Positions 19,290 to 38,389 of a DNA stretch of 38,389 nucleotides are shown here, in pieces. A program made the position numbers and the translations under genes. Origin of the DNA: Deltaproteobacteria bacterium CG_4_8_14_3_um_filter_43_13 (lineage in GTDB: Bacteria; Desulfobacterota; UBA8473); contig PFIF01000184.1 of the NCBI GenBank assembly GCA_002782605.1, forward strand, positions 1-38,389, read 5' to 3'. The notes beneath the pieces are model-generated. The model ran no database searches and had not been told where the DNA came from. It saw only the letters and a list, made by a program, of their open reading frames with translations. Each line of letters begins with the position of its first letter. Position 1 is the stretch's first letter.

Positions 19290-19299
19290 ATCTCGTTTA

Positions 19300-19435
19300 G
19301 CGCATAACACGGCAAACAACGACGCTGGTAATAGTCATGAGTAGTAAAAGCCTCGTTCAACACTTTTGTTTCACAAGGAATTTGTCTATTCGTAGTTCGC
19401 AAAAGTGCTGCGTTGTTTGTCCAAACGTTATCTGC
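19300..19435. repeat. Second imperfect inverted-repeat element of the ..ATAAC...GTTA.. type
   Basis: The arms are GCGCATAACACGGCAAACAACGACGC (19300-19325) and GCTGCGTTGTTTGTCCAAACGTTATCTGC (19407-19435). They flank about 80 bp and resemble the element at 1481-1605 in architecture. Confidence 0.45.
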
Positions 19436-19497
19436 TCAGTGCGGGCAGGGGAGACCATTTTTTAAAAAACTTATTTATGTTATGAGGAGTTAGTAAA

Positions 19498-19722: not shown

Positions 19723-19723
19723 G

Positions 19724-20089
19724 ATGATTAAATTTGTAATTGATGAAGACATGCCAAGATCAACAGCAAGGGTTTTAAAAGCCAATGGTTTTGACTCCTT
19801 AGATGTACGGGATTATGGTTTGAGAGGTAAAGATGACGAAGAGGTATTTGAATTTGCTCAAAGAAATAATGCCATACTATTGACTGGCGATTGGGGATTT
19901 GGGAACCTCTTACATTTCCCAGTAGGGAGTCATTTAGGGATTGTCATTGCTCATTTCCCTAACGAAATATCCTCTGCTGAATTGAATAATCAGATACTCA
20001 AAGCTTTTAGGAACCTTACAGAAGGTGATTTTAAAGGCAATCTCATTATTCTTGAACCAGGTAAACTAAGAATTAGAAGGAAACCATAA
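19724..20089 (+). CDS. DUF5615-family PIN-like protein (putative toxin)
   Basis: 121 aa. MIKFVIDEDMP...LKANGFDS......DEEVFEFAQRNNAILLTGDWGFGN matches the DUF5615 (Mut7-C/PIN-like) pattern. This family is the usual partner of DUF433. Confidence 0.7.
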   Translation: MIKFVIDEDMPRSTARVLKANGFDSLDVRDYGLRGKDDEEVFEFAQRNNAILLTGDWGFGNLLHFPVGSHLGIVIAHFPNEISSAELNNQILKAFRNLTEGDFKGNLIILEPGKLRIRRKP

Positions 20090-20111
20090 TTAGTAAGGAG
20101 TAACCCCCATA

Positions 20112-24034: not shown

Positions 24035-24051
24035 ATAGGAGGAGACACCTG

Positions 24052-25380
24052 ATGCACTATGACACAGCCCTTAGGGGCTACACGTCGAAGCGAATCGAGG
24101 AGATTGAATCCGCAGATATCCTGATAGGGATCCCCTGCTATAACAACGAGCGAACCATCGCCCACGTGATCCAGATGGTCAGTCATGGCATGGCCAAGCA
24201 CTACAATGAACGAAGGAGCGTAATCTTCATTGCCGATGGGGGCTCCACAGACGATACCAGGGAGGCAGCCAAGGAGTTTGAGATCAAACCGTGGCAGGAG
24301 AAGATTGTCTCTATTTACCGTGGCTCAGCGGGAAAAGGGACAGCCCTCAGGTCTATCTTTGAGGCTGCGAAGCGGCTCAGTGTTGAGGCGTGCGCTGTAG
24401 TGGACTCAGACCTCAGGAGTATCACATCGGACTGGGTGCAATATCTCCTGGACCCGGTTATTAGCAGGAAGTATCAGTTTGTGTCACCTGTCTACCTCCG
24501 GCACAAGTACGACGGAACTATTACTAACAATATCGTATACAACCTCACTCGCACCCTTTATGGAAAGCGCATCCGACAGCCCATAGGGGGAGACTTTGCT
24601 TTCTCAAGGGATTTAGCCGGATTCTATAGTGATCAGGACGTTTGGGGAACGGACGTGGCCCGGTATGGGATAGACATCTGGATGACCACCAACGCTATCA
24701 CTCAAGGGTTTAGTGTCTGCCAGTCCAATCTGGGAGCTAAGATCCACGATGTCAAGGACCCGGGACAGCACCTGGGCCCCATGTTCCGTCAGGTTATCTG
24801 GACCCTTTTTTCCCTCATGGAACGCTTTGAAACCTACTGGAAAGAGGTCAGGGGCAGCAAACCTGTTGAGACTTTTGGACACGAAGAATACGTGGAGCCT
24901 GAGCCTGTGGTTGTTAACGTAGAGGTAATGATAGAGAATTTCAGGACCGGCTTCCAGCAGTTCTCTTCCCTGTGGAAGGAGATATTCTGCAAAGATTGTT
25001 TCGACGAGATCACAAAGAGTTACGAAATGGATTCGAGCCATTTTCATCTCTCCACCGATGCATGGATTCAGATACTCTATGAATTAGCAGCTACCTTCCA
25101 TGCTTGGCGCATCAACCGCAACAAGTTGATCGACTTAGTTACCCCCCTCTACTATGCCCGGGTAGCCTCCTTCGTCCAGCAAACCCGGGAGATGTCCTTA
25201 CAGGAAGCCGAGGCACTGGTAGAGGAGCAGGCTATAAAGTTTGAGGAACACAAGGATTATCTCATCGAGGTATGGAATAAGAAAACTGAGGAGACAGCAG
25301 ATATACTTGCCAAGTTTGAAAAGGGACTTCGCAAAGAAGGGGCTGAAGAGAAGCAGAATAAAAAGGGGAGGAGACAATAA
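24052..25380 (+). CDS. GT-A fold glycosyltransferase (GT2/GT81-like), specificity unknown
   Basis: Motifs seen are ADILIGIPCYNNERTIAHVI, ...IADGGSTDDT..., GKGTALRSIF and VVDSDL (DxD). It has a C-terminal helical extension and a Lys-rich tail. An AGGAGG ribosome-binding site precedes it. Confidence 0.6.
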   Translation: MHYDTALRGYTSKRIEEIESADILIGIPCYNNERTIAHVIQMVSHGMAKHYNERRSVIFIADGGSTDDTREAAKEFEIKPWQEKIVSIYRGSAGKGTALRSIFEAAKRLSVEACAVVDSDLRSITSDWVQYLLDPVISRKYQFVSPVYLRHKYDGTITNNIVYNLTRTLYGKRIRQPIGGDFAFSRDLAGFYSDQDVWGTDVARYGIDIWMTTNAITQGFSVCQSNLGAKIHDVKDPGQHLGPMFRQVIWTLFSLMERFETYWKEVRGSKPVETFGHEEYVEPEPVVVNVEVMIENFRTGFQQFSSLWKEIFCKDCFDEITKSYEMDSSHFHLSTDAWIQILYELAATFHAWRINRNKLIDLVTPLYYARVASFVQQTREMSLQEAEALVEEQAIKFEEHKDYLIEVWNKKTEETADILAKFEKGLRKEGAEEKQNKKGRRQ

Positions 25381-25413
25381 ACAAACGAAGATAACAGAAA
25401 GGAGGGGAGAGCG

Positions 25414-26631
25414 ATGAGGGACGTCCTAGCAATGATCATGGCAGGGGGGGGCGGACAGCGGCTTTATCCATTAACCCGTGACAGGGCCAAACCGGCAGTC
25501 TGTTTCGGAGGAATATACCGCTTGATCGACTTCACATTAAGCAATTGCATCAATTCAAGAGCTCGAAAGATTGTGGTCCTGACCCAATACAAATCCCTGT
25601 CACTGGAGCGGCATTTGAGGTTGGGGTGGGATATGTTAGATTCAGAACTTGACGAATATATATTTCCGATCCCTGCCCAGATGAGGACCAGCGGGGAATG
25701 GTATAAGGGGACGGCAGACAGCATCTATCAGAATTTATACTTTGCCGATACAGTAAATCCCCGGTATTTCCTGATCCTCTCAGCGGATCATGTGTACAAA
25801 ATGGACTATTCCAAAATGCTCGCCTTTCATCAAGAGAAAGGCGCCGATGTTACTGTGGCCGCCATAGAGATCGATCAGACCGTCGCATCTCGGTTCGGTA
25901 TACTGAAGGTGGATGAAGAAGACAGTGTGATAGGTTTTGAGGAAAAGCCTGAGAGAATCGAGGTTTCACCCGGCAGCAAGCAGTCCCTCTTTGCCAACAT
26001 GGGGGTCTATATCTTCAATAGTGACATCTTAAGAGAATCACTTGAGGAGGATGCCCATAAAGAGACCAATCACGACTTTGGCAAGGACATTATCCCGGAG
26101 ATAATCCACAAAGCGAGGGTCTTTGCGCATAACTTTAGAGATGAAAACAAGAAGGAAGCCAAATACTGGAGGGATGTTGGCACCATCGATGCTTACTTTA
26201 ATGCCAATATGGACCTGGTTACACCGGATCCAGCACTGAACCTTTATGACTCTGACTGGCCCATACGTACCTATCAAGGTCATTACCCTCCTGCCAAGAC
26301 CGTCTTTGCGCAGGAATATCCTGGTGGAAGGTTGGGTATCTGTCTCGATTCTATGGTCTCAGGGGGATGTATAATTAGCGGCGGCAGGGTGCAAAACTCT
26401 GTCCTCTCTCCCCGTGTTAGAATCAACAGTTACGCTGATATTCGGGAATCCGTTTTGATGGAAGGTGTAGAGGTAGGCAGACATTCTAAGATCAGGAGGT
26501 CTATCATAGATAAAAGAATAAAGATACCTCAAGGAACAGAGATCGGTTATGACCTGGAAGCGGACAGAAAGCGGTTTTTTGTAAGTGAGTCAGGGATAGT
26601 GGTTATACCTAAAGGCACTAAAATTCCATAA
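25414..26631 (+). CDS. glgC: Glucose-1-phosphate adenylyltransferase
   Basis: Motifs seen are AMIMAGGGGQRLYPLTRDRAKPAVCFGGIYRLIDFTLSNCINS and ...WYKGTADSIYQN... The C-terminal part is a left-handed beta-helix region. Confidence 0.9.
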   Translation: MRDVLAMIMAGGGGQRLYPLTRDRAKPAVCFGGIYRLIDFTLSNCINSRARKIVVLTQYKSLSLERHLRLGWDMLDSELDEYIFPIPAQMRTSGEWYKGTADSIYQNLYFADTVNPRYFLILSADHVYKMDYSKMLAFHQEKGADVTVAAIEIDQTVASRFGILKVDEEDSVIGFEEKPERIEVSPGSKQSLFANMGVYIFNSDILRESLEEDAHKETNHDFGKDIIPEIIHKARVFAHNFRDENKKEAKYWRDVGTIDAYFNANMDLVTPDPALNLYDSDWPIRTYQGHYPPAKTVFAQEYPGGRLGICLDSMVSGGCIISGGRVQNSVLSPRVRINSYADIRESVLMEGVEVGRHSKIRRSIIDKRIKIPQGTEIGYDLEADRKRFFVSESGIVVIPKGTKIP

Positions 26632-26847
26632 TCAGTCAAATAGTCCACTCAGCGAAATACCTTCTTGAAATACCTTCTTTCTTAACACCATCCCCGAAGA
26701 TACAATTAGTTCGCCCTGAAAAATTCCCTTTTCCAAACATTTGAATAATTCTGAAGTTTCCTGAGTTTTTATACACAGTGTTTCTAGCCCATTGAAATAA
26801 ATGAGGGAAAAAGGGTAAGCGATGATATGGTTATAGCTATTGATCAT
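26632..26847 (-). CDS. Hypothetical 71-aa ORF (weak)
   Basis: It is the only open frame in the 353-bp gap between the convergent glgC and metF genes. I recognise no motif and see no clear ribosome-binding site. Confidence 0.2.
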   Translation of the reverse strand: MINSYNHIIAYPFSLIYFNGLETLCIKTQETSELFKCLEKGIFQGELIVSSGMVLRKKVFQEGISLSGLFD

Positions 26848-26984
26848 GGGGACATCCGAAAGAAGTATGGGGAGAAGATGGAGTATATAGCAAAGATTCG
26901 TGATGGTAGTGAGAAGGAGATTGAAGAGGGTTACTGGTACATGTCAACGGCGGGTTGGTTATGCGAGGGGTTATCTTCCCATTC

Positions 26985-27872
26985 TCAGACCAATCTTGCA
27001 GCGGCCATTATATCGGGCACCAGCTCCTCTCTCCCTATAGCCATGATGTGCACACCGTCACACATCCTCTCCTCCTGAATCCGCATGATCATACGGCCGG
27101 CAATCTCTATCCCCTTTTCTATAGCCCTACCTTTAGGCGCGGAGGCCATTTCATCGATCGGCTCCTGTGGTACGTTGACTCCGGCAACGTTCTTATTCAT
27201 AAACCGTGCCATAGGAGCGGAGGTTAGAAGGATGATGCCGGCTAGTATCTTTGCGGGAAACTGTCTGGCGTAGTCCATAAATTGTTTAAATCTGTCAAGG
27301 TCGTACACTGCCTGGGTCTGGATAAACTCGGTGCCTGCCTCAATCTTCTTTTCAAATTTTATAAGCTGGGGCTCGAGAGGGTTGGCCTCGGGGGTAACTA
27401 TAGCGCCGGCACAAAAAGAGATGCCTCCATCCAGGTCGTTCCCTGCCAGGTCCTTCCCTCTTTCCAATCTTCTGATCGCCGCCAACAACTGACTCGAATC
27501 CAGGTCAAAGACGCTCTTGGCCTCTTTGTGGTCACCCAGAAGGACTGAATCACCCGTGAGACAAAGGACATTATGAATCCCTCTGCTTGAGGCAAAGAGA
27601 AGATCTGCCTGTAATGCCAACCGGTTCCGGTCCCTACAGGTCATCTGCAATATGGGTTCTCCGCCCATCTCTTTGATCAAGAGAGCACCTCCCAGGGAAG
27701 GAAACCGCATAACCGAACTCTGATGATCTGTAATATTTATGGCATCCACCTTATCTTTCAGAAGCTCGATATGGTGGACCATCTTCTCCAGATTTGTCCC
27801 TTTCGGTGGCGCTACCTCAGAGGTAACCACAAATTTGCCCGATTCCAGTGCCTTTTTAAATGAGGAAACCAT
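26985..27872 (-). CDS. metF: 5,10-methylenetetrahydrofolate reductase, small acetogen-type MetF
   Basis: 295 aa. KFVVTSEVAPPKG contains the catalytic Glu context. Also seen are ...INITDH..., LCLTGD (the Asp of the folate site) and a TIM-barrel pattern. It follows metV. Confidence 0.85.
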   Translation of the reverse strand: MVSSFKKALESGKFVVTSEVAPPKGTNLEKMVHHIELLKDKVDAINITDHQSSVMRFPSLGGALLIKEMGGEPILQMTCRDRNRLALQADLLFASSRGIHNVLCLTGDSVLLGDHKEAKSVFDLDSSQLLAAIRRLERGKDLAGNDLDGGISFCAGAIVTPEANPLEPQLIKFEKKIEAGTEFIQTQAVYDLDRFKQFMDYARQFPAKILAGIILLTSAPMARFMNKNVAGVNVPQEPIDEMASAPKGRAIEKGIEIAGRMIMRIQEERMCDGVHIMAIGREELVPDIMAAARLV

Positions 27873-27926
27873 GATCTTCGAATCCTTTCCTTCGAAAAAG
27901 TATTAAATCGTTTACAGTCCACAGTT

Positions 27927-27943
27927 AAACGGTTAAACCGTTT
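27927..27943. promoter_or_regulatory. 17-bp palindrome AAACGGTT-a-AACCGTTT in the metV-metF gap
   Basis: It has perfect 8-bp arms and lies 55 nt upstream of the metF start. It is related to ACCGTTT-containing motifs at 36187-36198 and 32433-32460. Confidence 0.4.
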
Positions 27944-28017
27944 TTAAAACCTGCACCAGAGAGCGGGAAAGGGAATTTTTAAGTGTGAACTCGTCAGACT
28001 TCATTAGAAACCTTGCC

Positions 28018-28671
28018 CTAAGATGCTGAGATCACTAATTTCCCAGGCTTAGGCTCTCCCTGGTGATTCCTGGGCTGTTGAAACCTTCTCATGGCATCCA
28101 GAGTGCCTAAGTCCTTTAAACGATTATATATCAAGGTCCAGGCGCAGTCCTTTGCGCTGTCTATCTCACACTTTCCATTGTTGGTGCCGCCACAGGGGCC
28201 ATTCACTAAACCCTTATGGCACGAAGTAACAGGACAAATCCCGCCTGTTTCACCAAGTATGCATGCCCCGCACTGGAGGCATATCTCGTCAAACTGACCT
28301 AAAGCGGTTTCCTTCCCGATAAACAGGGTATCCAGTGCAGGGACAACCAGCTTCTTTAACTGTCTTGCCACGGTTTGGACACCGAAGGCACAGGTCATTA
28401 TGAAAAGCACATCTGCCTGAGCTATCTGTTGACCGTATTTACTCAAGGCATCTCCAGTCAAGTTGTCACAGGCAACAGGCAACACCACACCCCCGGTAAT
28501 CAGCTTGCCCTTATCTGACAGCCTTTCCTTCATGGCTTCCACTTCAGGCTCTCCACCTGTGTGTGTCAAAGTAACGCATGTCCCGCATCCTATTATGAAA
28601 ACCCTTCCCAATCCCTCGAGAAGCCGCAGAATCTCCTCTTCTGATTTTTGTTGTGTAATAGACCTGATCAT
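28018..28671 (-). CDS. metV: MetV (MTHFR C-terminal-domain / zinc-ribbon Fe-S subunit)
   Basis: The Cys-rich C-terminal half is CLQCGACILGETGGICPVTSCHKGLVNGPCGGTNNGKCE, typical of MetV. It has a 4-nt overlap with the upstream gene. Confidence 0.8.
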   Translation of the reverse strand: MIRSITQQKSEEEILRLLEGLGRVFIIGCGTCVTLTHTGGEPEVEAMKERLSDKGKLITGGVVLPVACDNLTGDALSKYGQQIAQADVLFIMTCAFGVQTVARQLKKLVVPALDTLFIGKETALGQFDEICLQCGACILGETGGICPVTSCHKGLVNGPCGGTNNGKCEIDSAKDCAWTLIYNRLKDLGTLDAMRRFQQPRNHQGEPKPGKLVISAS

Positions 28672-31600
28672 ATTGTTGTCCTCTCCTTTTCCAAGTCACA
28701 TCTGAGGCATCTCATAGCCTCACGGTAGGCCTGCTCTTTAGAAAAGCCTTTCTCAACTTCCCGGAAGTCTTTCACCCTTTCCTCTGGTCTCTCGAGTTCG
28801 ATATTGATTCTTGGCCTTTCTTCAGTTGTTTCCTGGTCCAGCGCCAGGCCTGCATCCTCCTTCATGGATGTCTTCTCATCTACGATCTCTATGCGACCTG
28901 TATCACCTTGAAGGTATTTATCTATAGCAATGGATGCCCTCCTCCCCAGGGCTATGGCATTTATCACAACACTTGGACCTGTAGTAAAATCGCCCCCTGC
29001 AAAGACCCCCGGGACATTCGTCGCCAGACGGTTTTCCTCCACCTCCAGACTGCCCCACAGGGCTCGCTCAAGCTGGCTGTCTTCAGACAGGAAAGATATG
29101 TCAGGGGCCTGTCCAACGGAAATAATCACGGCTTCAGCATCCACCATCAGTGCTGTTTTCTCATCCACACTGATACGGGAACGGCCTTCTTCGTTGAAGA
29201 CGGTGATGCTGCGTGCGAACTCCATACCGGTTATCTTCCCGTGCCGATGTATGATCCGCTTCGGCGCCCAGGAAGGATTGATGATGACCCCTTCCTCAAT
29301 GGCCTCCTCAATGTCTTTTTCCCAGGCCGGCATCTCTTCTTTGGTTCTCCGATAGAATATCTGAACATCCGATGCGCCCACCCGCAAGGCGGTTCTGGCA
29401 ACGTCAAAAGCCACATTTCCTCCCCCGATAACGATAACCTTTCCTTTCAGTTCTATATTCTTACCCAGTTTTACATCTCTCAAAAACTGAAGACCGTAAT
29501 ATAGCCCTTCCAGACCCTCTTCTTCGCCCGCGATCTCGATCCGAAGACTTGCATGGGCACCCGCTGCAATAAAAACAGCGCCATACCCTTCTGCCATCAA
29601 GTCATTGACTGTATGCCGGGCATCAATCGGGGAGTTATAACGGATATCTACCCCACGGCTCTCGATATAATCCACCTCTTCTTCAATGACCTTCCGCGGT
29701 AGGCGAAACTCAGGGACAGCAATCCCCAGCATTCCGCCGGCAACCGATTGTGCCTCGAATACCGTCACCTTATAACCCATTTTAGCAAGAAAATAGGCAC
29801 AGGTTAAACCGGCGGGCCCTGCGCCCACTACGGCAATTTTTTTATCTTTAGTTGCCTGAAAAGGCTCACTTGCCCGTCCTATGTGTTCGAAGTACCAGTC
29901 CGAAGCAAAACGCTTGAGTGATCTGATAGCCACGGGATCGTCCAGCTCACCTCGACGGCATTTCAACTCACATGGATGGATGCAGATACGTCCGCACACT
30001 GCAGGAAAGGGATTCCTCTCCCGGATAATCTCCACGGCCTTTTCGTAATTGTTGCGTGCTATGGCTGCTACATAGTTTGGCACATCAATACCTGCAGGAC
30101 AGGCATGCTGGCAGGCTGAGATAACCATGGAATCACATGTTGCCCCTTCACAGCGGTGTTCCAGGATGTGGTCTTCATATTCCTTCATGAAATAGTTCAG
30201 GGTAGAAAGGGCAGGTTTGGGGCACGTCTGGCCAAGCCCGCAGAGGGATGACTCAGTAATCGTCTCCCCGAGTTCCTGTATGGTCTTGATATCCTCGAGT
30301 CTACCCCTGCCCTGGGTGATGCGGGTCAGTATCTCCAGCAACTGGGTTGTACCCACACGACATGGGGTACACTTCCCGCAGGATTCCGCCTGGGTAAAGC
30401 TCAGGAAAAACCGGGCGATCTCCACCATACAGTTGTTCTCATCCATGACCACCATCCCGCCTGATCCCATAATTGCGCCTATCCGCTGTAGGGTATCGTA
30501 ATCTATAGGCAAATTCAAATACTGGGAAGGCACGCATCCGCCCGATGGCCCCCCCATCTGCACCGCCTTGAACTTTCTCCCCTTGAGGATACCACCGCCA
30601 ATATCAAAGACCACCTCTTTCATGGTCACGCCAATGGGAACCTCCACCAGACCGGTGTTATTCACCTTACCTACCAGCGAGAATATCTTTGTGCCCTTAC
30701 TCTTTTCTGTACCTATCTCTGTATACCACCCAACCCCATTTTTGATAATCAACGGAACATTTGCCCATGTCTCCACGTTATTGATATTGCTGGGTTTCCC
30801 ATCCAGTCCTGCCTGAGCAGGAAACGGCGGCCGGGCCCTCGGCATTCCCCGCTTCCCCTCAATAGATGACATCAGGGCGGTTTCCTCGCCACAGACAAAT
30901 GCCCCTGCACCCTTCTTCAGGGAAATATCAAGGTTAAAACCAGCTCCCAGGATATTTTCCCCCAAAAGTCCCCGCTCTCTCATCTGTTCTAAAGCAATAC
31001 CCAAGTGCTCGACTGCAATGGGGTATTCCTCCCTCACATAAATATACCCGTATTCTGCCCCTATGGCATACGCTCCGATGAGCATCCCCTCAAGGACAGC
31101 ATGGGGGTCCCCTTCCAGAACTGAACGATCCATAAAGGCTCCGGGGTCTCCTTCATCTGCATTGCAGATTATATATTTGGGTCGTCCCGGTGCCTGACGG
31201 GCAAATTTCCATTTCAGCCCTGTCGAAAAACCTGCCCCACCCCTGCCTCTCAGTTTTGAGTCAGTTACATCATTTATTACCTCTTCAGGGGTCATACTGG
31301 AAAGGGCTTTGCCAATAGCCCCATATCCTCCAGCGGCGATGTAATCCTCAATATTGGTAGGATCAATCTGCCCGCAATTGGCCAGAACCCTCCTCACCTG
31401 TTTGCCGAAAAAGGGGATATCTTTTTCACATGTAATCTTCTCCCTACTCTCAGGATCTGTATAAAGGAGTCGCTCTACAGGTTTGCCATGGATAAGGGTT
31501 TCGGAGACAATCTCAGGTACATCATCCGTCTCCACCTTGTTATAGAAGATATTATCAGGGTCAACAGCCATAACCGGCCCATTTTCACAGAAACCCCTGC

Positions 31601-31802
31601 AGCCTGTTTTCTTTATTTCTACCTTATCTTCTAAACCACTGATGGTGAGTTCTTGTTTGAAGGCATCAATGATTTTGAGAGATCCTCCAGCACGGCATCC
31701 TGTGCTACAGCATACCTTGACAACCTGCCGTTTAGGGTCACGTTTGCTGAGGATGTTCTGCCGAAGGGCCTCCAGATCTGAAGGGCTTTCAATCTTCTTC
31801 AT
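28668..31802 (-). CDS. NuoF/HydB-like FMN-NADH subunit fused to a GltD/NfnB-like FAD-NAD(P)H oxidoreductase module
   Basis: At the N-terminus is a thioredoxin-like 2Fe-2S domain (CCSTGCRAGG...CRGFCENGP). The NuoF core follows (GRGGAGFSTGLKW, GEETALMSSIEGKRGMPR, ESCGKCTPCRVG...LCGLGQ). Next is the GltD-type Fe-S region (CQHACPAGIDVPNY...CGRICIHPCELKCRRG). Two Rossmann motifs follow (KKIAVVGAGPAGLTCAYFL and KVIVIGGGNVAFDVA). The total is 1044 aa. Confidence 0.85.
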   Translation of the reverse strand: MKKIESPSDLEALRQNILSKRDPKRQVVKVCCSTGCRAGGSLKIIDAFKQELTISGLEDKVEIKKTGCRGFCENGPVMAVDPDNIFYNKVETDDVPEIVSETLIHGKPVERLLYTDPESREKITCEKDIPFFGKQVRRVLANCGQIDPTNIEDYIAAGGYGAIGKALSSMTPEEVINDVTDSKLRGRGGAGFSTGLKWKFARQAPGRPKYIICNADEGDPGAFMDRSVLEGDPHAVLEGMLIGAYAIGAEYGYIYVREEYPIAVEHLGIALEQMRERGLLGENILGAGFNLDISLKKGAGAFVCGEETALMSSIEGKRGMPRARPPFPAQAGLDGKPSNINNVETWANVPLIIKNGVGWYTEIGTEKSKGTKIFSLVGKVNNTGLVEVPIGVTMKEVVFDIGGGILKGRKFKAVQMGGPSGGCVPSQYLNLPIDYDTLQRIGAIMGSGGMVVMDENNCMVEIARFFLSFTQAESCGKCTPCRVGTTQLLEILTRITQGRGRLEDIKTIQELGETITESSLCGLGQTCPKPALSTLNYFMKEYEDHILEHRCEGATCDSMVISACQHACPAGIDVPNYVAAIARNNYEKAVEIIRERNPFPAVCGRICIHPCELKCRRGELDDPVAIRSLKRFASDWYFEHIGRASEPFQATKDKKIAVVGAGPAGLTCAYFLAKMGYKVTVFEAQSVAGGMLGIAVPEFRLPRKVIEEEVDYIESRGVDIRYNSPIDARHTVNDLMAEGYGAVFIAAGAHASLRIEIAGEEEGLEGLYYGLQFLRDVKLGKNIELKGKVIVIGGGNVAFDVARTALRVGASDVQIFYRRTKEEMPAWEKDIEEAIEEGVIINPSWAPKRIIHRHGKITGMEFARSITVFNEEGRSRISVDEKTALMVDAEAVIISVGQAPDISFLSEDSQLERALWGSLEVEENRLATNVPGVFAGGDFTTGPSVVINAIALGRRASIAIDKYLQGDTGRIEIVDEKTSMKEDAGLALDQETTEERPRINIELERPEERVKDFREVEKGFSKEQAYREAMRCLRCDLEKERTTI

Positions 31803-32301
31803 CTATAACATCCTTTAATTTTTCTTTCTCCTCTTTACCGTACTCTACCAGTATGTTATTTACCTTTGGTGGAGAAAGTTTCCCAAAGTAGGCTCTATTG
31901 ACCATCGTAGTAGGTGCAAGGGCACATGCCCCAAGACAGGCGGTAGTCTCAAGGGTAAACTGATAATCAGAGGTGGTCTCTCCTTCATTCAGCGCCAGCT
32001 CTCTCTTTACCAATCTCAGGATACTCTGACCGCCTTTGACATGACAGGCCGTTCCGCGGCATACTCTGAGTACGTATTTACCCTTAGGCTTTACGGAAAA
32101 TCCTGAGTAAAAAGATATTACTCCCTGGACCTCGGTTGGAAACAGTTTCATGGCACTGGCAATCAAATTAATGGACTCTGGCGGGACATAACCGAACGTT
32201 TCCTGAATATCCTGCAGCAGAGGAATAAGCCCCCATTTCTCGTCTCGGTGTTCGCCGATGATGGAGGTGAGTTTATCCCAATCGATCTCTTTCGGCTTCA
32301 T
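31789..32301 (-). CDS. NuoE/HydC-like [2Fe-2S] subunit
   Basis: 170 aa. The motifs RVCRGTACHVKGG...TTACLGACALAP give the C-x4-C-x35-C-x3-C pattern. It has a 14-nt overlap with the NuoF-fusion gene. Confidence 0.85.
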   Translation of the reverse strand: MKPKEIDWDKLTSIIGEHRDEKWGLIPLLQDIQETFGYVPPESINLIASAMKLFPTEVQGVISFYSGFSVKPKGKYVLRVCRGTACHVKGGQSILRLVKRELALNEGETTSDYQFTLETTACLGACALAPTTMVNRAYFGKLSPPKVNNILVEYGKEEKEKLKDVIDEED

Positions 32302-32336
32302 TCGTTTTCTCCCCTATCCCTAAACCTTCTCAAGTT

Positions 32337-32505
32337 GTAACTACTCAGACAGGCACAAAGGCACAGAGCACCAAAGGCACAAAGTATAGTTCAGTTATCA
32401 GTTATCAGTTACCAGTTATCGGTTAATTATTAACTGTAAACTGTTAACCGTAAACCGTATTTTTAGTGCCTATGTGCCTTTGTCTCTTTGTGCCTGAATA
32501 GTTAC
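32337..32505. repeat. About 170-bp long imperfect palindromic element with a central array of ten 7-nt units
   Basis: The ends are GTAACTACTCAGACAGGCACAAAGGCAC... and the inverted ...GTGCCTTTGTCTCTTTGTGCCTGAATAGTTAC. The centre (32391-32460) is TCAGTTA x3, CCAGTTA, TCGGTTA, ATTATTA, ACTGTAA, ACTGTTA, ACCGTAA, ACCGTAT, with dyad symmetry about 32429. The right arm overlaps the last 12 codons of the FdhA-like CDS. Confidence 0.7.
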
Positions 32506-35199
32506 CTCAAATTTAACTCGACAGGTCTTCCAGCCCAATGAGTCATGCCTGGAAAGCTGTGCCAGGTTGATAAGATTCCGTGAATCGTTGTCATTAAAAG
32601 CCACTGGGACAAATATCAGCCCCGCTATTAATCCATCTCTCAGTCTGATCCCTCTCTCTACTGCCCCATATCGGGAAATGACCCGAACAGCGTCCCCATC
32701 ATGCAAATTTAATTTTGTCCCATCTTTGGGGGATATCTCTATCTCTCCCTTCAAATCAAACTCCTGAATACGCTTGGAACGGCTCGTCCGAGTACCGCTT
32801 CCCAAATGGTAACGGTAAGACCCGAGGATAGCCGTCAAAGGATAAACATCATCAGGCACTTCATCTTCGGTGGAAACAACAGGAGAAAAAGGAATCAAGT
32901 CTCCTTTCCCATCGGGGCGGAAGCGAGCCTTTTCACTCGTTTCCCTGATCCAGGGCGTGTATCCATGCCCACCCGGATCCGCATACATAGGCACAGACCC
33001 AATGATTTCTTCCCTTACCCTTTCCAGAGAACTGTAGTGTTTGGAATACCCCATCTTTTCAGCAAGAAGGGCCAGGATTTCCCAGTCAGGTTTGGCATCT
33101 CCCGGTGGAACTACTACGGGTGTAAAGGTTTGAATCCTTCCTTCCATATTCGTAAATGAACCGCCCTTTTCGCAGAAAGCGGCGCCTGGCAGAACCACAT
33201 CTGCAATCTCGGCGGTTTCGTTTGCGAGGATATCTTGAACCACTACAAAATCTAATTTCTCCAGGGCACTGCGAACCCGTTCAGGTTGAGGGAGACTCCG
33301 GAGGGGGTTTTCCCCCATGATGTACAATGCTTTTAGGTTGCCTTTCTCGGCTTCCTCGATCATTCTGACCATATTGAGACCTTGATCGGGCGAAATCTTT
33401 GCCTGCCATACCCGTTCCCATTGTTTTCGCGTTAAATCATCACTCAGAGACTGACCACCCGGCAATCCGTATGGCACCGCCCCCATATCCTGTGCACCCA
33501 ATTGATTGTTTTCCCTTGCAAGAATATACAGACCGGCCCCTTCAGTTCCAAGGCTTCCGGTCATGAGTGAGAGGTTAATGATAGCCTCTAGACACTCCCG
33601 CCCATATCTCTGCTGCAGGATTCCATGCCCAACCACGAAGGCAACCTTTTTCCCGTGTAACAACTCGGCAGCCTCTTCAATAGTACCCACATCTATAGAT
33701 GTTACCCGGCTAATTCTGTCAATGTCCAGGGAAGAAAGCCCGCGACGGTACAGGTCAAACCCCTCTGTAAACTGGATTATGAAATCAGAGGCGTATGCCT
33801 TTTTCTGGTACAGCAGCATAGCCAGAGCGTTGATCAATTCAAGGTCGCTCCCGGGAAAAACACGGAGCCAGATAGATGAGAAGTCCACCAATTCCGTGCG
33901 CCTTGGATCAGCAACTATTAAGGGAATGCCCTTCTTCGCAGCCCTTTTGAGATAATAGCTCACCACAGGAACCGAGTGATTTGGGTCCGCACCAAGAACA
34001 AAAATGGCATCCTCTTTCTCCAGCCGAGCAAGGGGCTGAATACGGTACCCCCCGTCTGTTTTTTCATCAATGAGATTCAAGAGGGACTGCCCGGACACAT
34101 AGCCACCATTGTCCACGTTATTTGTTTCAAGAACAACCCTTGCTATCTTTTGAAAGAGGTAATTTTCCTCATTTGTGCATTTGGAGGAACCTAAAAATGC
34201 CACGTTTTGTGGGCCGTTTTCCCGTTTGATTTCAAGAAGCCGTCTTGCAACAACCTCCAGTGTCTCACCCCATGAAGCGGAAACCAGCTCGCCATCTTTG
34301 CGAATCAAAGGACTGCGCAACCGTTCACTGGCATTGAGAAAGTCATGGGCAAAGTGGCCCCTGACACAGAGGGTTGCCCCATTAACCGTGTCGGATATGT
34401 GTGATGGGTTGACCTCTATAACCTGTTCATCCACAACACCCATAGACAGAGAACAGCCTACACCACAGAATCCGCAGATAGAACGAGATTCCCTCTGAGG
34501 AGTACCTACGTAACGTGTATTATTCGGGGACAATGCCCCGGTGGGACACATTGACACACAGGTGCCGCAAAAGGTGCAGTCAGAATGCTCTAAGCCCAGA
34601 TCATGAAGCGCGACAGGGCGGGATTTAAAGCCTCTCTGGTTATAATCTATTGCCCCCACAACAACCAGTTCATGGTCTGCCCGGATACACTTTCCACACA
34701 GGATACATTTGGAGAGATCCCTGATAATGAAAGGATTTGCCTGTTCCAGTGGTTTGTAGTTGGGCATAGGGTAAAGGTTTGTCTCCCCTATACCGAGTTT
34801 AGCGGCTATCTGACGCAACTGACAGCGGTTCCCTTTGCTGCAAAATATACAGGACTCCGGATGTTCAGCGATCATCAGCCTGACTATATTCCGCCTGTGC
34901 TTATTTACACGGGGTGACTCTGTCAGGATACTCATGTCCTGGGCCACTGGCGTAACACATGACGCCATGATACGGCCGGCCTTCTCATCTTCTACCAGGC
35001 AGAGACGACAGGCGCCAAACGGTTTAAGGTCAGGATGATAGCAGAGTTTGGGAATCTGTATACCGTGCTGCTCTGCAGCCTCCAGAATGGTTGTTCCGGG
35101 CGGACAGGTGATATTTCTCCCATTAATGGACAGCGTTATGTTTTCCAAAAAACTAACTCCTTTTGGATTCGGGGTCAGACCCGTAGCAATATAACCCAA
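32470..35199 (-). CDS. FdhA/NuoG-like Fe-S plus molybdopterin-oxidoreductase-fold subunit lacking the catalytic Cys/Sec-His
   Basis: The cofactor motifs seen are: 2Fe-2S (CYHPDLKPFGACRLCLVE), a His-ligated 4Fe-4S (HPESCIFCSKGNRC), 2x[4Fe-4S] (CILCGKCIR, CTFCGTCVSMCP), and a MopB 4Fe-4S (CGFCGVGCS...LCVRG). The protein has the MopB body and a C-terminal barrel. At the FDH active-site position it reads NNVDNGGYVSGQS instead of NNVD.CAR(L/V)(C/U)H. The likely true start is TTG 35148, with AAGGAG 8 nt upstream, giving MENITLSINGR... Confidence 0.8.
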   Translation of the reverse strand: MGYIATGLTPNPKGVSFLENITLSINGRNITCPPGTTILEAAEQHGIQIPKLCYHPDLKPFGACRLCLVEDEKAGRIMASCVTPVAQDMSILTESPRVNKHRRNIVRLMIAEHPESCIFCSKGNRCQLRQIAAKLGIGETNLYPMPNYKPLEQANPFIIRDLSKCILCGKCIRADHELVVVGAIDYNQRGFKSRPVALHDLGLEHSDCTFCGTCVSMCPTGALSPNNTRYVGTPQRESRSICGFCGVGCSLSMGVVDEQVIEVNPSHISDTVNGATLCVRGHFAHDFLNASERLRSPLIRKDGELVSASWGETLEVVARRLLEIKRENGPQNVAFLGSSKCTNEENYLFQKIARVVLETNNVDNGGYVSGQSLLNLIDEKTDGGYRIQPLARLEKEDAIFVLGADPNHSVPVVSYYLKRAAKKGIPLIVADPRRTELVDFSSIWLRVFPGSDLELINALAMLLYQKKAYASDFIIQFTEGFDLYRRGLSSLDIDRISRVTSIDVGTIEEAAELLHGKKVAFVVGHGILQQRYGRECLEAIINLSLMTGSLGTEGAGLYILARENNQLGAQDMGAVPYGLPGGQSLSDDLTRKQWERVWQAKISPDQGLNMVRMIEEAEKGNLKALYIMGENPLRSLPQPERVRSALEKLDFVVVQDILANETAEIADVVLPGAAFCEKGGSFTNMEGRIQTFTPVVVPPGDAKPDWEILALLAEKMGYSKHYSSLERVREEIIGSVPMYADPGGHGYTPWIRETSEKARFRPDGKGDLIPFSPVVSTEDEVPDDVYPLTAILGSYRYHLGSGTRTSRSKRIQEFDLKGEIEISPKDGTKLNLHDGDAVRVISRYGAVERGIRLRDGLIAGLIFVPVAFNDNDSRNLINLAQLSRHDSLGWKTCRVKFEVTIQAQRDKGT

Positions 35200-35247
35200 A
35201 TGTCGGGTCAGACCCCAACCTGACTTCTGAGTCCTGAGCTTTTTTGA

Positions 35248-36123
35248 CTATCTGAGTTTCGCCGCATCCAGATAGTACCTGAGCTTTTCTTCCCCGCCTA
35301 TGGTTATAATATGAATCCCCTGACAGATGTCTTTAATGCCTGTTACTATATCAGCAAAAAGATATATACTGGCCTTTTGCTTGTCTGAGGCTTTGGCTAG
35401 TTTTTGGATAATCCACTCCGGCACCAATCCTGACTTGAAGTGTCGGTTGAGAAATCGGCCCATGCCGGCTGTCCTCAGAATCATGACTTCTGCAATTACC
35501 GGAACTCCGAAGGTCCCGACAGTCTTTACGAATTTCTCAAACCGATCCAGATCGAATACCGGTGTTGTCAAGAAGTACCCGGTACCTATCCTCGTCATCT
35601 CCTCCATTTCTTTCATCTCTAGCTCCGGAACGTTTTTACCCCAGCAAGATTCAACACCCGAGCCCAATATGAATTCGGCTTTGTAAGGAAGTTCCTTGCC
35701 GTCGACTGTGCGGCCTTCCCGAATGTGTTCCAGAACAGAGGCTAATTTCCCGGAATCAACATGGAAGAACATTATCTCCTGAAGGCTATCCCCTGTAATC
35801 CGGTAGTCTTCAGTGAATACAAGGAGGTTTTCTACACCTGCTTCATGGGCAAGTATGAGGTCCTTTTGTAGTTGTAAACGGTTCTTTTGCCGGGTTGAAG
35901 TCTGATATATAGCCTCAAATCGGTTCTGTTTCAGAACTTCACACGTCTTAATCGTATCCCCCACTATCCCCTCAATCTCAACCTCTGATACGGAAACCCC
36001 GTCAACACGCCCTCGCACCAGATTGAAAGTCTTGACAATGCCTTCCGGCTCCTCATCGATAGGTGCCTGGATTTCAGTTGTAACCAGAAATTTCCTTTTT
36101 GCCAAAGCTTCTCTCAGCTTCAT
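35248..36123 (-). CDS. Divergent MetF (MTHFR-family) paralog
   Basis: Using the ATG at 36123, which has AAGGAG 6 nt upstream, the length is 291 aa. MKLREALAKRKFLVTTEIQAP parallels FKKALESGKFVVTSEVAPP of MetF. FTED parallels LTGD. The ORF track's extension to GTG 36174 is unlikely. Confidence 0.7.
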   Translation of the reverse strand: MKLREALAKRKFLVTTEIQAPIDEEPEGIVKTFNLVRGRVDGVSVSEVEIEGIVGDTIKTCEVLKQNRFEAIYQTSTRQKNRLQLQKDLILAHEAGVENLLVFTEDYRITGDSLQEIMFFHVDSGKLASVLEHIREGRTVDGKELPYKAEFILGSGVESCWGKNVPELEMKEMEEMTRIGTGYFLTTPVFDLDRFEKFVKTVGTFGVPVIAEVMILRTAGMGRFLNRHFKSGLVPEWIIQKLAKASDKQKASIYLFADIVTGIKDICQGIHIITIGGEEKLRYYLDAAKLR

Positions 36124-36211
36124 CAGCAGCTCCTTTACTGTCCTGGAAGGTAATCTTCTGTGGTAACCGTTCACGGTTCTCAGTTTACCGTTTACGGTTT
36201 GTATTCAATGA

Positions 36212-36241
36212 ATTATATAAAGCTTGGAGCATTTTTGCCAA
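36212..36241 (-). promoter_or_regulatory. Candidate sigma-70 promoter of the metF2 operon (TTGGCA-N18-TATAAT)
   Basis: On the minus strand, the -35 TTGGCA is at 36241-36236 and a perfect -10 TATAAT at 36217-36212. The palindrome ACCGT-tt-ACGGT (36187-36198) lies just downstream of the predicted start site. Confidence 0.45.
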
Positions 36242-36294
36242 CTGCTAACCGCAAACCATAAACTGTGAACAGATACCTTTTGTTGGTGTATGAA

Positions 36295-36870
36295 TCAGGG
36301 CAACCCCAATAACCGGCTTACCTCTTGCTTCAACTGGGGCAGAGGTAAAGGCTTGGAAAAACACACATCTGCACCGTACTCCTTCATCATCCTGAATTTC
36401 TCTTCGTCCAGATACGCTGACAAGACGATAATAACCATGTTCCTGGTAGCCTCATTGGACTTAATCTTCCTGCACACCTCATACCCCTTAATATCAGGCA
36501 TCATGATGTCCAGTATTAAAAGGTGCGGTTTGAAGTGACTTACCTGAAGACCTGCCTCAAATCCATCGGAAGCAGAAACAACATCATAATCATGTTCATC
36601 CTCTTCCAATGCCTGAACAATCGTTTCAACGATGATGGGGTCGTCATCCACCACAAGTATTCTCTTTCTCTCTTCCATTTGTTCATCTTCGGGGATTGGA
36701 ATCCCCTGCCTTTGCATAAAATCTTCAAGATCCAGCTTCTTTATACGACGATGCCCCCCCACGGTCTTGTATGCCTTGATATAGCCAGAATCTATCCAGT
36801 TGATAATGGTCTTGGGGGAGACATTACAGTATTTGCTGGCCTTGAAAACAGTTAATACAGCATCCATCAA
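36295..36870 (-). CDS. Response regulator with N-terminal excisionase/MerR-type HTH and C-terminal receiver domain
   Basis: The N-terminus FKASKYCNVSPKTIINWIDSGYIKAYKTVGGHRRIKKLDLEDF is an excisionase-family HTH. The receiver follows: KRILVVDDDP...HLLILDIMMPDIKGYEV...VIIVLSA. Confidence 0.8.
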   Translation of the reverse strand: MMDAVLTVFKASKYCNVSPKTIINWIDSGYIKAYKTVGGHRRIKKLDLEDFMQRQGIPIPEDEQMEERKRILVVDDDPIIVETIVQALEEDEHDYDVVSASDGFEAGLQVSHFKPHLLILDIMMPDIKGYEVCRKIKSNEATRNMVIIVLSAYLDEEKFRMMKEYGADVCFSKPLPLPQLKQEVSRLLGLP

Positions 36871-36927
36871 ATGGCTCCTTTTGTTTTTCTGTTATTGCTA
36901 AATTTACTATTATTATAGTTTTTACTA

Positions 36928-37023
36928 ATTGTCAAGTAAAATTTTGGGGTAGATTATTTATTTATTATAATTATTATATTTATTTCTATTATTTCTATTA
37001 TTGATTGTCAAGTAAAATTTTGG
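36928..37023. repeat. 20-bp perfect direct repeat ATTGTCAAGTAAAATTTTGG x2 (76-bp period) in an AT-rich spacer
   Basis: Copies lie at 36928-36947 and 37004-37023. On the minus (coding) strand each contains TTGACA. TATTTCTAT is also tandemly duplicated at 36981-36999. Confidence 0.75.
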
Positions 37024-37052
37024 TTATTTTCGACTTTTCTATTGTGACAGGA

Positions 37053-38389
37053 TTAAATAGAAGGGATAAAAACAGGGAGGCTGATGGTAAAGGTTGTTCC
37101 AGAACCCACCTTGCTTTCTACTTTAATATCACCTCCATGATCTTTTACAAACCCATAGCAGACAGACAGGCCAAGGCCAGTATCTCTTGCACCATCTTTA
37201 GTAGTAAAAAAGGCATCAAAAATCTTACTTATATATTCTTCTTTTATACCGATCCCTGTATCGGCTATCTGAATCCGGACATTGTCTTTACCGCCATTAG
37301 TCTTAACTGTTAAGGTTCCACCTTCTGGCATAGCATCTCGAGCGTTCGAGATTATATTGAGAAAGACCTGCCTAAGTTGATTCTTTGATGCATAAACCTT
37401 TCCCAAACCTTCTGCAAAAGAGGAAGAGACCCGGATATCGTGTTCCCGCAGTTGTTTCTCATGGAGAAGCAGTATCTCATCAAGCATTGTATTGATATCT
37501 ATGGGATGCCTTTCTTCCTCATCAGGCCTGGAAAAAGAGAGCATCTTGCGGAGCAGCTCGGACAGTCTCACCGTCTCGGAAAGGGCCATATCCAGAATCT
37601 TTCTTCTCTTGTTCTCAGGAGAAATCTCCGTTTTCATCAATTCCAGGGTATTCATGATTCCATAGAGGGGATTGTTTAGTTCATGGGCAATCTGAGAAGT
37701 CAGACGCCCCATGGCCGCCAGCTTTTCTGACTGCAATAACTGTTCCTGTGTCTGTCTCAGCCTTCGTTCCATCTCCAGGCTCTCCCCCAGGTCTACAAAT
37801 ATCCCTACAGAAGCAACTTCATTCCCTTTCGCATCGTAAATGATGGATGCCGAAAGGTTCCCCTCAACAATTTGGCCATCCTCTCTCACATAGGTTATGG
37901 GGTATGCTCTCAATTTGCCCACACCACCATAGTCTGGACCTCGCATCATTTGCATTACTTTTCTGGCATCCCCTTCTGAATAAATCTTTTCGATGCTCAT
38001 CTTGCCGATCACATCCTCTGCCTTACATCCAAGTGCCTCTTCGGAAGCCCGGTTCCAGATGATGATATTCCCCTTCATATCGGTCGCCATAATAGGGTTT
38101 GGCGAACTATGAATAGTCTTGTTCGGAAAATCATGTGCCTCCCTGAGTTCTTTCTCCATCTCTTTTCGCTGAGATTGATCCACATTGATCCCTTCGTACC
38201 CTAATACATTACCATCCTGATCATAGCGAATATGGCTTGTGAGTAAGACCGAAATAGCCTTCCCATCTTTCCGTTTAAAATCAACCTCATAATCGATCAC
38301 ATGACCTTTTCGCTCGATCATCTCCTGAAATCTTTGACGATTTTCAGGCATCAAATAGAGGTCTCTGGTTATATCAATATCCAGGAATT
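37053..38389 (-). CDS. PAS-domain sensor histidine kinase (5' end beyond the window)
   Basis: It has two PAS-like segments. The H-box is SQIAHELNNPLY. The N and G boxes are NIISNARDAM, DTGIGI and GLGLSV. The reading frame stays open from 38354 to the window edge (..FLDIDITRDLYL..), so the gene is partial. Confidence 0.85.
   Translation of the reverse strand, partial: FLDIDITRDLYLMPENRQRFQEMIERKGHVIDYEVDFKRKDGKAISVLLTSHIRYDQDGNVLGYEGINVDQSQRKEMEKELREAHDFPNKTIHSSPNPIMATDMKGNIIIWNRASEEALGCKAEDVIGKMSIEKIYSEGDARKVMQMMRGPDYGGVGKLRAYPITYVREDGQIVEGNLSASIIYDAKGNEVASVGIFVDLGESLEMERRLRQTQEQLLQSEKLAAMGRLTSQIAHELNNPLYGIMNTLELMKTEISPENKRRKILDMALSETVRLSELLRKMLSFSRPDEEERHPIDINTMLDEILLLHEKQLREHDIRVSSSFAEGLGKVYASKNQLRQVFLNIISNARDAMPEGGTLTVKTNGGKDNVRIQIADTGIGIKEEYISKIFDAFFTTKDGARDTGLGLSVCYGFVKDHGGDIKVESKVGSGTTFTISLPVFIPSI

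Follow-up and report, generated by a model that had tools for sequence, protein, structure and literature searches.

A conserved Desulfobacterota gene cluster joins metFV to the genes of a rearranged Bfu-type module

We analysed a stretch of DNA of 38,389 nucleotides (nt), hereafter the window, from Deltaproteobacteria bacterium CG_4_8_14_3_um_filter_43_13 (contig PFIF01000184.1), and found that it carries a cluster of six minus-strand genes: metF2, an FdhA-like gene, a nuoE-like gene, a nuoF::gltD fusion, metV and metF. The cluster is one inherited unit, and it is best classed as a variant of two known kinds, a MetFV-type methylene-tetrahydrofolate reductase (MTHFR) and a Bfu-family enzyme, an association that has already been flagged briefly in the literature. 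We consider it probable, with moderate confidence, that the products form one complex that links MetFV to pyridine nucleotides and works as a multisubunit methylene-tetrahydrofolate (methylene-THF) reductase or methyl-THF dehydrogenase. This reading builds on what was observed, namely the domain and ligand inventory of the proteins, their homology to Bfu and Nfn-Bfu enzymes, the loss of the formate dehydrogenase (FDH) site from the large subunit and a conserved synteny with tight junctions; from these we infer a physical complex, its substrates, its direction and its energy coupling.

Six genes and their predicted cofactors

Pfam and NCBIfam searches of the window's proteins bore out the domain assignments of an original prediction made from the DNA letters and their translations, as well as its placing of six open reading frames (ORFs) on the minus strand. 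The genes, with the two parts of the fusion, are as follows.

35248-36123, minus strand: metF2, 291 amino acids (aa); Pfam MTHFR, 51 bits
32470-35148 (alternative start 35199), minus strand: FdhA/NuoG-like (BfuA-like) scaffold, 892 aa; Pfam and NCBIfam matches, alignments
31789-32301, minus strand: NuoE-like/BfuC-like [2Fe-2S] subunit, 170 aa; Pfam, NCBIfam and PDB matches
28668-31802, minus strand: nuoF::gltD fusion, 1044 aa; domains 2Fe-2S_thioredx, Complex1_51K, NADH_4Fe-4S, Fer4_20 and Pyr_redox_2
30144-31802, minus strand: BfuB-like part of the fusion, aa 1-553; domain matches, alignments
28668-30143, minus strand: GltD/NfnL-like part of the fusion, aa 554-1044; domain matches, alignments
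28018-28671, minus strand: metV, 217 aa; Pfam DUF5981 (PF12225), 118 bits
26985-27872, minus strand: metF, 295 aa; Pfam MTHFR (PF02219), 133 bits

Both predicted gene overlaps can be read directly in the sequence, one of 14 nt between nuoE and nuoF::gltD (ATGAAGAAGATTGA, 31789-31802) and one of 4 nt between nuoF::gltD and metV (ATGA, 28668-28671), and each overlap has a purine-rich ribosome-binding stretch ahead of it. The most likely start of metF2 is ATG 36123 rather than GTG 36174, and that of the FdhA-like gene is TTG 35148, which gives 892 aa instead of the 909-aa ORF; each lies downstream of an AAGGAG, and gene calls on sister contigs match both corrected starts. The HdrABC-MvhD and RnfC2 partners, which had been predicted to be missing, were indeed not encountered: no Hdr, MvhD, RnfC or acs gene was found among the ORFs of the window.

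Alignment to T. thermophilus MTHFR revealed that the catalytic motifs of MetF are intact, including the Glu of SEVAPP, the Asp of LTGD and the Gln of TQ. The metV gene lies directly upstream, and its product bears the MTHFR C-terminal domain (DUF5981) and an NGPCGG motif. The pair thus carries the motifs, domain and gene position that mark the MetFV type, of which metF is predicted to encode the catalytic MTHFR subunit and metV the Fe-S subunit with its Cys-rich sites. A PDB search turned up no homologue of MetV, and no solved MetFV structure was at hand for docking models. MetF2 is a divergent paralogue with the MTHFR fold, 28% identical to MetF. In an alignment of the two families it retains two residues, the β1 Glu and the 'TED' Asp, while the Gln of 'TQ' is replaced by Thr and most other loop motifs are changed as well (ITD to VSE, TQ to TT, EAG to RIG). 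These changed positions are invariant inside the MetF2 family, and the best 120 of 2674 matches to MetF2 are 77-100% identical to it and almost all 291 aa long, which argues that MetF2 is functional; it may provide a second folate site, or be a flavin-free paralogue or an adaptor.

Recent cryo-electron microscopy (cryo-EM) papers place the bifurcation site of Bfu enzymes at a flavin mononucleotide (FMN), the B1 [4Fe-4S] cluster and the C1 [2Fe-2S] cluster. The same papers describe a Zn hinge of three Cys and one His, the His occurring in virtually all Bfu-family B subunits and missing from non-bifurcating homologues, and a C-terminal ferredoxin-like domain of BfuB, B3/B4, whose two CX2CX2CX3CP motifs make up the site of ferredoxin reduction. 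The NuoF part of the fusion (aa 27-560) scored 646-771 bits against the BfuB chains of structurally characterised bifurcating enzymes (NiFe-HydB, FeFe-HydB, NfnB and StnB). Its scores against complex I NuoF were 357-380 bits, and those against FDH beta subunits 295-420 bits. The NuoE-like protein scored 112-156 bits against BfuC chains and about 92 against NuoE, its best PDB matches being HydC (155 bits), NiFe-HydC (148) and NfnC (136). That both proteins score far higher against BfuB and BfuC than against complex I homologues supports the likeness to HydABC and other Bfu enzymes that had been proposed, and places NuoF and NuoE much nearer to bifurcating BfuB and BfuC than to their respiratory or FDH counterparts.

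The predicted ligands of the fusion include those of an N-terminal thioredoxin-like [2Fe-2S] cluster (C31, C36, C68, C72), of the [4Fe-4S] cluster B1 (C475, C478, C481, C521) and of the Zn hinge (C458, H545, C551, C556), and an FMN/NADH site is predicted too. These ligands are invariant in 74 aligned homologues or fully conserved in the MetFV-linked clade described below. The fusion thus has the FMN/NADH site, the B1 cluster and the hinge with its Bfu-specific His that define BfuB, and it is accompanied by a BfuC-type [2Fe-2S] protein and by a BfuA-type protein with at least the A1 and A2 clusters.

Of the features that define BfuB, the C-terminal ferredoxin-like B3/B4 domain is missing. Homology to BfuB stops at about aa 560, the Fer4_20 dicluster domain of the GltD module starts directly after it, and no CX2CX2CX3CP motif was found in the fusion protein; the GltD module occupies the position that the ferredoxin-like domain has in BfuB. 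Two [4Fe-4S] clusters are predicted in the module, with C564, C568, C603, C607, C611 and C615 joined by C1032 and C1035 of an invariant C-terminal CxxC to give eight ligands altogether, along with a flavin adenine dinucleotide (FAD) site and an NADPH-type site (GGGNVAFD...FYRRTKEEMPA). It is most closely related to the insert in Csac NfnA (residues 103-567, 351 bits), Tsi NfnA and Sporomusa StnC. NfnSL-L and GltD come well behind these Nfn-Bfu/Stn inserts, with which the module also has the NADPH-site motif in common.

The gltD fusion gene also contains a poly-G tract at 30549-30555 (G7 on the minus strand), which encodes M-G-G-P. The contigs compared include L087-L089 (4644-7779; L numbers denote loci and contigs). 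The tract is G7 in the window and several contigs; other samples of this population yielded at least 13 contigs with G8, in which the gene is split into ORFs of 454 aa and 592 aa with the rest of the gene identical. The G8 form may reflect an artefact of assembly, a tract prone to slippage or a loss-of-function allele.

The FdhA-like large subunit comprises the domains Fer2_4, NADH-G_4Fe-4S_3, Fer4 dicluster, Molybdop_Fe4S4, Molybdopterin and Molydop_binding. In the 892-aa numbering its predicted ligands are C36, C47, C50 and C64 for a [2Fe-2S] cluster, H96, C100, C103 and C109 for a His-ligated [4Fe-4S] cluster, two ferredoxin-type [4Fe-4S] motifs, and C225, C228, C232 and C261 for a further [4Fe-4S] cluster; the ligands for one [2Fe-2S] and four [4Fe-4S] clusters are invariant in the linked orthologues. 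One of the two ferredoxin-type clusters has an invariant Asp158 as its fourth ligand in place of Cys, the motif CxxCxxCxxxC reading CILCGKCIRAD (Asp158 codon, 34675-34677). Because the 27 MetFV-linked orthologues and L045, a related Dehalococcoidales locus, all have this Asp, whereas five of six relatives with an active FdhA have Cys, the residue suggests an Asp-ligated or [3Fe-4S] cluster particular to the MetFV-linked clade.

Aligned over its full length, the large subunit has about 40% identity with R. capsulatus FdsA (E = 4e-140). It scores 516 bits against TIGR01591, which is under that family's cut-off of 666. The catalytic Cys386-His387 of FdsA aligns with Ser-Gly, that is S369-G370 in the 909-aa ORF and S352-G353 counted from TTG 35148, so the replacement of the catalytic Cys/Sec-His that had been predicted is borne out. 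In 36 linked orthologues the catalytic position either is deleted or holds S, Y, N, F, A or P, and the Arg motif has not been retained. The protein therefore lacks both the Cys/Sec-His pair and the catalytic Arg of FDHs linked to NAD, and its Mo/W-pterin active site is lost. By contrast, NuoE-NuoF::GltD-FdhA clusters of Dehalococcoidia and Planctomycetota retain the motifs DHCARLCHA and PLRGQNNVQ. As these relatives have an intact active site, the scaffold is probably a degenerate FDH, and the simplest history is that an FDH-type enzyme beside metF lost catalysis and turned into an electron wire.

A conserved linkage and a modular core

Whether the linkage recurs in other genomes had been set beforehand as a possible refutation of the original prediction, and the survey found it clearly conserved. 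We scanned one genome per GTDB species, which gave more than 548 relatives of the fusion protein, and examined the best 80. Forty of these form a clade of species-level genomes with fusion proteins 60-81% identical to that of the window, almost all labelled Desulfobacterales, Desulfatiglandales or unclassified Deltaproteobacteria/Thermodesulfobacteriota, and the Dehalococcoidales locus L045, with a fusion 59% identical, has the same arrangement. Counting in this clade only where a contig permits judgement, MetV is encoded downstream of the fusion gene in 36 of 36 loci and MetF downstream of MetV in 26 of 26, with NuoE upstream of the fusion gene in 35 of 35, the FdhA-like protein upstream of NuoE in 27 of 27 and MetF2 upstream of the FdhA-like protein in 22 of 26. 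The fusion-metV junction was estimated to lie within about 10 nt in around 30 of 33 loci. MetF is 70-89% identical among the conserved loci, and divergence in MetF (r = 0.83), MetV (0.82), NuoE (0.75) and the FdhA-like protein (0.61) correlates with that of the fusion protein. The conserved order, tight junctions and correlated divergence identify the cluster as one inherited unit and not a chance neighbourhood. It is also frequent in Desulfobacterota, with hundreds of genome and metagenome matches.

Proteins identical to those of the window occur on groundwater-metagenome contigs, including GenBank PEVP01000125 (GCA_002779785.1), which are labelled Deltaproteobacteria bacterium CG2_30_43_15 or CG12_big_fil_rev_8_21_14_0_65_43_10; near-identical members of the cluster (at least 90% identity) are labelled Desulfobacterales or Desulfobacteria.

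The NuoE and NuoF::GltD proteins are also encoded without MetFV in many other phyla, and the core they form is modular across phyla. In L048, L051, L056 and L059 (approximately 13100-15500; hosts Acetothermia, Aminicenantes, Thermoplasmatales and Zixibacteria), the pair is followed by a short 2Fe-2S/dicluster BfuA and a 525-aa protein with a Glu_synthase domain. In L047 (13086-15913, Anaerolineales) it is followed by an HdrA-MvhD fusion, and in L078 (8196-16096, Dehalococcoidales) it accompanies an active FdhA; there the cluster closes an acs operon, in which acsE, metF and a DUF3786 gene come before it. In other phyla the pair was always accompanied by a catalytic partner, whether an active FdhA, a Glu_synthase-domain protein or HdrA-MvhD, which argues that it is a core serving a neighbouring catalytic module.

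Regulatory genes, intergenic repeats and flanking sequence

The following features lie upstream of metF2 or between the genes of the cluster.

36212-36241, minus strand: sigma-70-like promoter match TTGGCA-N18-TATAAT, found by a sequence scan at 11 of 12 positions
36295-36870, minus strand: response regulator, HTH_17 DNA-binding domain followed by a receiver domain (Pfam)
37053-38389, minus strand: PAS/HisKA/HATPase sensor histidine kinase (Pfam), with orthologues upstream in other loci
32351-32495, unstranded: tandem-repeat arrays with units of 7-8 nt (TRF, sequence)

The response regulator has an unusual domain order, with its excisionase/MerR-like HTH_17 domain at the N terminus and the receiver at the C terminus. 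Its orthologue lies directly upstream of metF2 in approximately 22 loci (74-84% identity), and in approximately 20 a kinase orthologue is encoded immediately upstream, also on the same strand (65-77% identity). The kinase gene is probably truncated by the end of the window, since the sister contig L001 calls a protein of 636 aa. The kinase and response regulator are part of the conserved unit, which therefore exceeds the six genes, and this dedicated pair probably controls expression of the cluster.

A strong promoter had been predicted ahead of the six genes. The sequence itself holds up, in that TTGGCA-N18-TATAAT (36241-36212) is the top promoter-like match of the region at 11 of 12 positions, but its role as the start of the operon is less secure. 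It lies in a 171-nt intergenic region particular to the lineage of the window and is not kept in orthologous loci, most of which have a gap of 14-75 nt between the response regulator gene and metF2. Given these short gaps, the transcription unit may begin further upstream, and the operon start may lie upstream of the kinase gene.

Intergenic regions of this lineage have been enlarged by the 7-8-nt repeats, and the orthologous regions in other genomes are far shorter. The repeats fill all three long intergenic regions (32351-32495, 27905-27945 and 36160-36265), with units such as TCAGTTA (five copies), AACCGTA (four copies), AGGCACAA (four copies) and GTGCCTTT (four copies). Those at 32351-32495 fill the 168-nt gap between the FdhA-like gene and nuoE and extend 26 nt into the 3' end of the FdhA-like gene. 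This gap contains no ORF as long as 20 aa. In the gap between metV and metF (27909-28002), a segment of about 90 nt with partly repeat-like sequence is found in the window, L001 and L006 and is missing from the otherwise nearly identical sister contigs L002 and L003, and is a strain-level indel. Across 26600-37100 there were no Rfam matches at gathering score, with THF and S-adenosylmethionine (SAM) riboswitches considered. A candidate sigma-54 promoter inside TTGGCAAAAATGCT was rejected by eye for its unsuitable GG-GC spacing.

Elsewhere in the window there are genes for glycogen metabolism, genes of the TamB/Omp85 type and a sigma-54 two-component pair. The glycogen/starch block that adjoins the cluster (16108-26631) encodes a GlgB-like branching enzyme, GH57 and GH77 proteins, a GT2 glycosyltransferase and a GlgC-like nucleotidyltransferase; this ordinary block keeps its synteny in sister contigs. 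An 83-aa ORF on the plus strand (26827-27078), antisense to the 3' end of metF, is called on sister contigs, has no Pfam match and is probably spurious.

Relation to known enzymes and proposed function

The association of metFV with these genes had been called undescribed, which does not stand. Yi et al. 2021 (Microbiol Spectr 9:e00958-21, PMC8515935) found homologues of nuoEFG ahead of metFV in Dethiosulfatarculus sandiegensis, described this arrangement as widespread among Desulfobacterales and Chloroflexi, and suggested, as speculation, that it might be a bifurcating "X type" MTHFR. NuoE, NuoF and NuoG homologues are encoded upstream of metFV in the window and in the 40 genomes of the clade, and the cluster is almost certainly a member of the X type. 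The few sentences given to it there do not describe the GltD fusion, the lost ferredoxin-like domain or the dead FDH site, nor MetF2, the two-component system or the relatives with active FdhA. In the literature after this 2021 mention we found no biochemical characterisation of an X-type enzyme. The 2022 Bfu classification has in its main text neither a MetF-linked type nor a BfuB-GltD fusion, and does not name a modular NuoE/NuoF::GltD sub-family. Proteogenomic papers on Desulfobacteraceae make no subunit-level statement, and a figure legend in a D. autotrophicum paper labels the enzyme "MetF-ABC" with no explanation. In the literature consulted we saw neither the exchange of B3/B4 for GltD, the Asp ligand and MetF2 nor the systematic decay of the FDH site by comparison with active relatives; the two-component system dedicated to the cluster and the modularity of NuoE/NuoF::GltD were likewise not seen there.

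Among known systems, the StnABC/NfnABC (Nfn-Bfu) enzymes of Sporomusa ovata, Caldicellulosiruptor saccharolyticus and Thermococcus sibiricus have these parts in common with the window: a BfuB/BfuC-type core, a GltD module of the same lineage with two [4Fe-4S] clusters, and a large subunit that ends in a dead FDH-like domain. The likeness to Stn, which had been proposed, agrees with the Stn structure paper, in which StnAB is the bifurcating core and StnC fuses a [2Fe-2S] domain with GltD and with a NuoG part that terminates in an FdhF-like domain without catalytic activity. The arrangement differs, in that StnABC/NfnABC have GltD inserted in the large BfuA subunit and keep B3/B4 in BfuB, whereas in the window GltD is at the C terminus of BfuB, where it replaces B3/B4, the BfuA-type subunit is without a GltD insert, and MetV, MetF and MetF2 are added. 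HdrABC-MvhD-MetFV (Moorella/Sporomusa) and RnfC2-MetFV (Acetobacterium) likewise have MetFV beside an encoded NADH-binding flavin/Fe-S module, but their partners are Hdr/MvhD or RnfC2, whereas those of the window, which has neither hdrABC/mvhD nor rnfC2 next to metVF, are an unrelated Bfu-type NuoEF, GltD and a dead FdhA. Bifurcation by the Moorella type is likewise suspected but unproven (PMC8515935). Fdh-Bfu/FdsABG enzymes have the same three-subunit NuoE/NuoF/FdhA layout and the same Fe-S chain in the large subunit; they differ in that the window lacks the catalytic Cys/Sec-His and Arg, has the Asp-ligated cluster and an altered gene order, and adds MetFV.

In the complex that we favour, a rearranged Bfu/Stn-type module would be the electron-transfer partner of MetFV. 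The flavin of MetF would interconvert methylene-THF and methyl-THF, and the Fe-S clusters of MetV would join the five-cluster chain of the degenerate, BfuA-like FDH, which would lead on to the FMN/[4Fe-4S]/[2Fe-2S] site of the BfuB/BfuC-like NuoF and NuoE, where NAD(H) binds. The dicluster/FAD/NADP(H) module of GltD would sit on the BfuB Zn hinge, where the mobile C1 cluster usually passes low-potential electrons to B3/B4, so that FMN, B1 and C1 would form a three-way junction of NAD(H), NADP(H) and methylene-THF. In Desulfobacterota with the Wood-Ljungdahl pathway, such an enzyme could, in either direction, tie the methylene/methyl-THF couple (-200 mV) to pyridine nucleotides, with uphill oxidation of methyl-THF driven by a second, lower-potential donor, either reduced ferredoxin or NADPH.

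Three variants of this mechanism fit a reversible enzyme in users of the oxidative pathway, and we do not rank them firmly. Ferredoxin may dock at the GltD diclusters as in NfnSL, giving a classical bifurcation between NAD(P)H, ferredoxin and methylene-THF; NADP(H) may itself be the low-potential partner in a ferredoxin-free reaction near equilibrium at in vivo potentials; or the enzyme may have dual nucleotide specificity without energetic coupling. The second variant would make the complex a ferredoxin-independent bifurcating or confurcating enzyme, in which the GltD module with FAD and NADP(H) stands in for the low-potential arm, whose end point is ferredoxin in every Bfu enzyme characterised, a proposal that we regard as rather unlikely. 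Its reaction would be 2 NADH + NADP+ + methylene-THF <-> 2 NAD+ + NADPH + methyl-THF, and in the oxidative direction NADPH (approximately -380 mV in vivo) would drive the endergonic oxidation of methyl-THF (-200 mV) with NAD+.

Several observations weigh against a single MetFV complex of the Bfu type. As the ferredoxin-like B3/B4 domain is missing, classical Bfu bifurcation to ferredoxin cannot simply be assumed. Stand-alone MetFV is active with reduced ferredoxin alone in clostridia such as C. ljungdahlii (PMC8515935), and so need not dock onto its neighbours. The cluster of the window is interrupted by intergenic regions of 145-171 nt with promoter-like matches, and no Wood-Ljungdahl genes were found in the window outside the cluster. 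In addition, a second, Hdr-type MTHFR cluster lies in convergent orientation a few kilobases downstream in L011 (16411-22767) and also in L013, L026, L031 and L044. It consists of a 1402-aa GltD-HdrA fusion ('HdrL'), MvhD, MetV and MetF, the last 40-44% identical to MetF of the window. With such a MetFV nearby in some genomes, the cluster under study is not necessarily the catabolic MTHFR.

The main rival explanation is that the genes encode two separate, co-regulated enzymes, a permuted Stn/NfnABC-type transhydrogenase of NADH and NADPH, perhaps with ferredoxin, and an ordinary ferredoxin-dependent MetFV, placed together since both serve the redox balance of the Wood-Ljungdahl pathway. The NuoE, NuoF::GltD and FdhA-like trio does have the StnABC/NfnABC domain inventory, down to the dead FdhF-like domain, and both the activity of MetFV by itself in C. 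ljungdahlii and the occurrence of NuoE and NuoF::GltD without MetFV in many phyla also speak for it. We nevertheless think this explanation unlikely: the B3/B4 domain needed for the Stn/Nfn-Bfu reaction is missing, the pair is elsewhere always found with a catalytic partner, and MetV follows the fusion gene in every one of the 36 loci, mostly with overlapping or abutting stop and start codons.

Slightly less probable still is a non-bifurcating NADH/NADPH:methylene-THF oxidoreductase of dual specificity, comparable to the RnfC2-MetFV of Acetobacterium, in which the two nucleotide sites give or take electrons in parallel and the Bfu features are leftovers. An NADH-type site at FMN and an NADPH-type site at FAD are both predicted, the cluster is without a ferredoxin gene or ferredoxin-like domain, and NADH-dependent, non-bifurcating MetFV complexes exist (PMC8515935). 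Against this reading, every Bfu-specific ligand is invariant across the 74 homologues, both the His and Cys of the hinge and those of the N-terminal [2Fe-2S] and of the BfuC cluster, and an unguarded wire from FAD through clusters to FMN would short-circuit NADPH and NAD+. Moreover, methyl-THF oxidation with NAD+ is endergonic, so that a coupling device is expected (PMC6295475), and for complete oxidisers the oxidative direction is endergonic with NAD(P)+ alone.

A genuine NAD(P)+-dependent FDH of the FdsABG/Fdh-Bfu type that merely adjoins metFV, as the full-length similarity to FdsA and the related Dehalococcoidia and Planctomycetota clusters with intact FdhA might suggest, is highly improbable and was rejected on its active-site residues, given Ser-Gly in place of Cys/Sec-His, a site that is variable or deleted in 36 orthologues, the lost Arg motif and the TIGR01591 score under the cut-off.

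If the ferredoxin-independent variant holds, NuoE/NuoF::GltD would form a modular branch of its own within the Bfu family, one that in other phyla also serves active FdhA, a glutamate-synthase-like protein and HdrA-MvhD. The cluster is a natural experiment on the Bfu mechanism, in which the ferredoxin arm has been exchanged for a pyridine-nucleotide flavoprotein and the junction of flavin and two clusters kept, and any structure of the complex would apparently be the first for a MetV subunit. The electron carrier and energy balance of the methylene/methyl-THF step are unresolved in acetogens and syntrophic acetate oxidisers (PMC8515935, PMC6295475), and the question equally concerns complete-oxidising sulfate reducers, which are obliged to run the step uphill; much of the carbon oxidation in the seabed is attributed to the related Desulfobacteraceae. 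Abundant, highly conserved and consisting of a concrete set of five or six proteins, the cluster is a good candidate for study of methylene-THF energetics, and it could reveal how the energy cost of a key Wood-Ljungdahl step is covered in these anaerobes.

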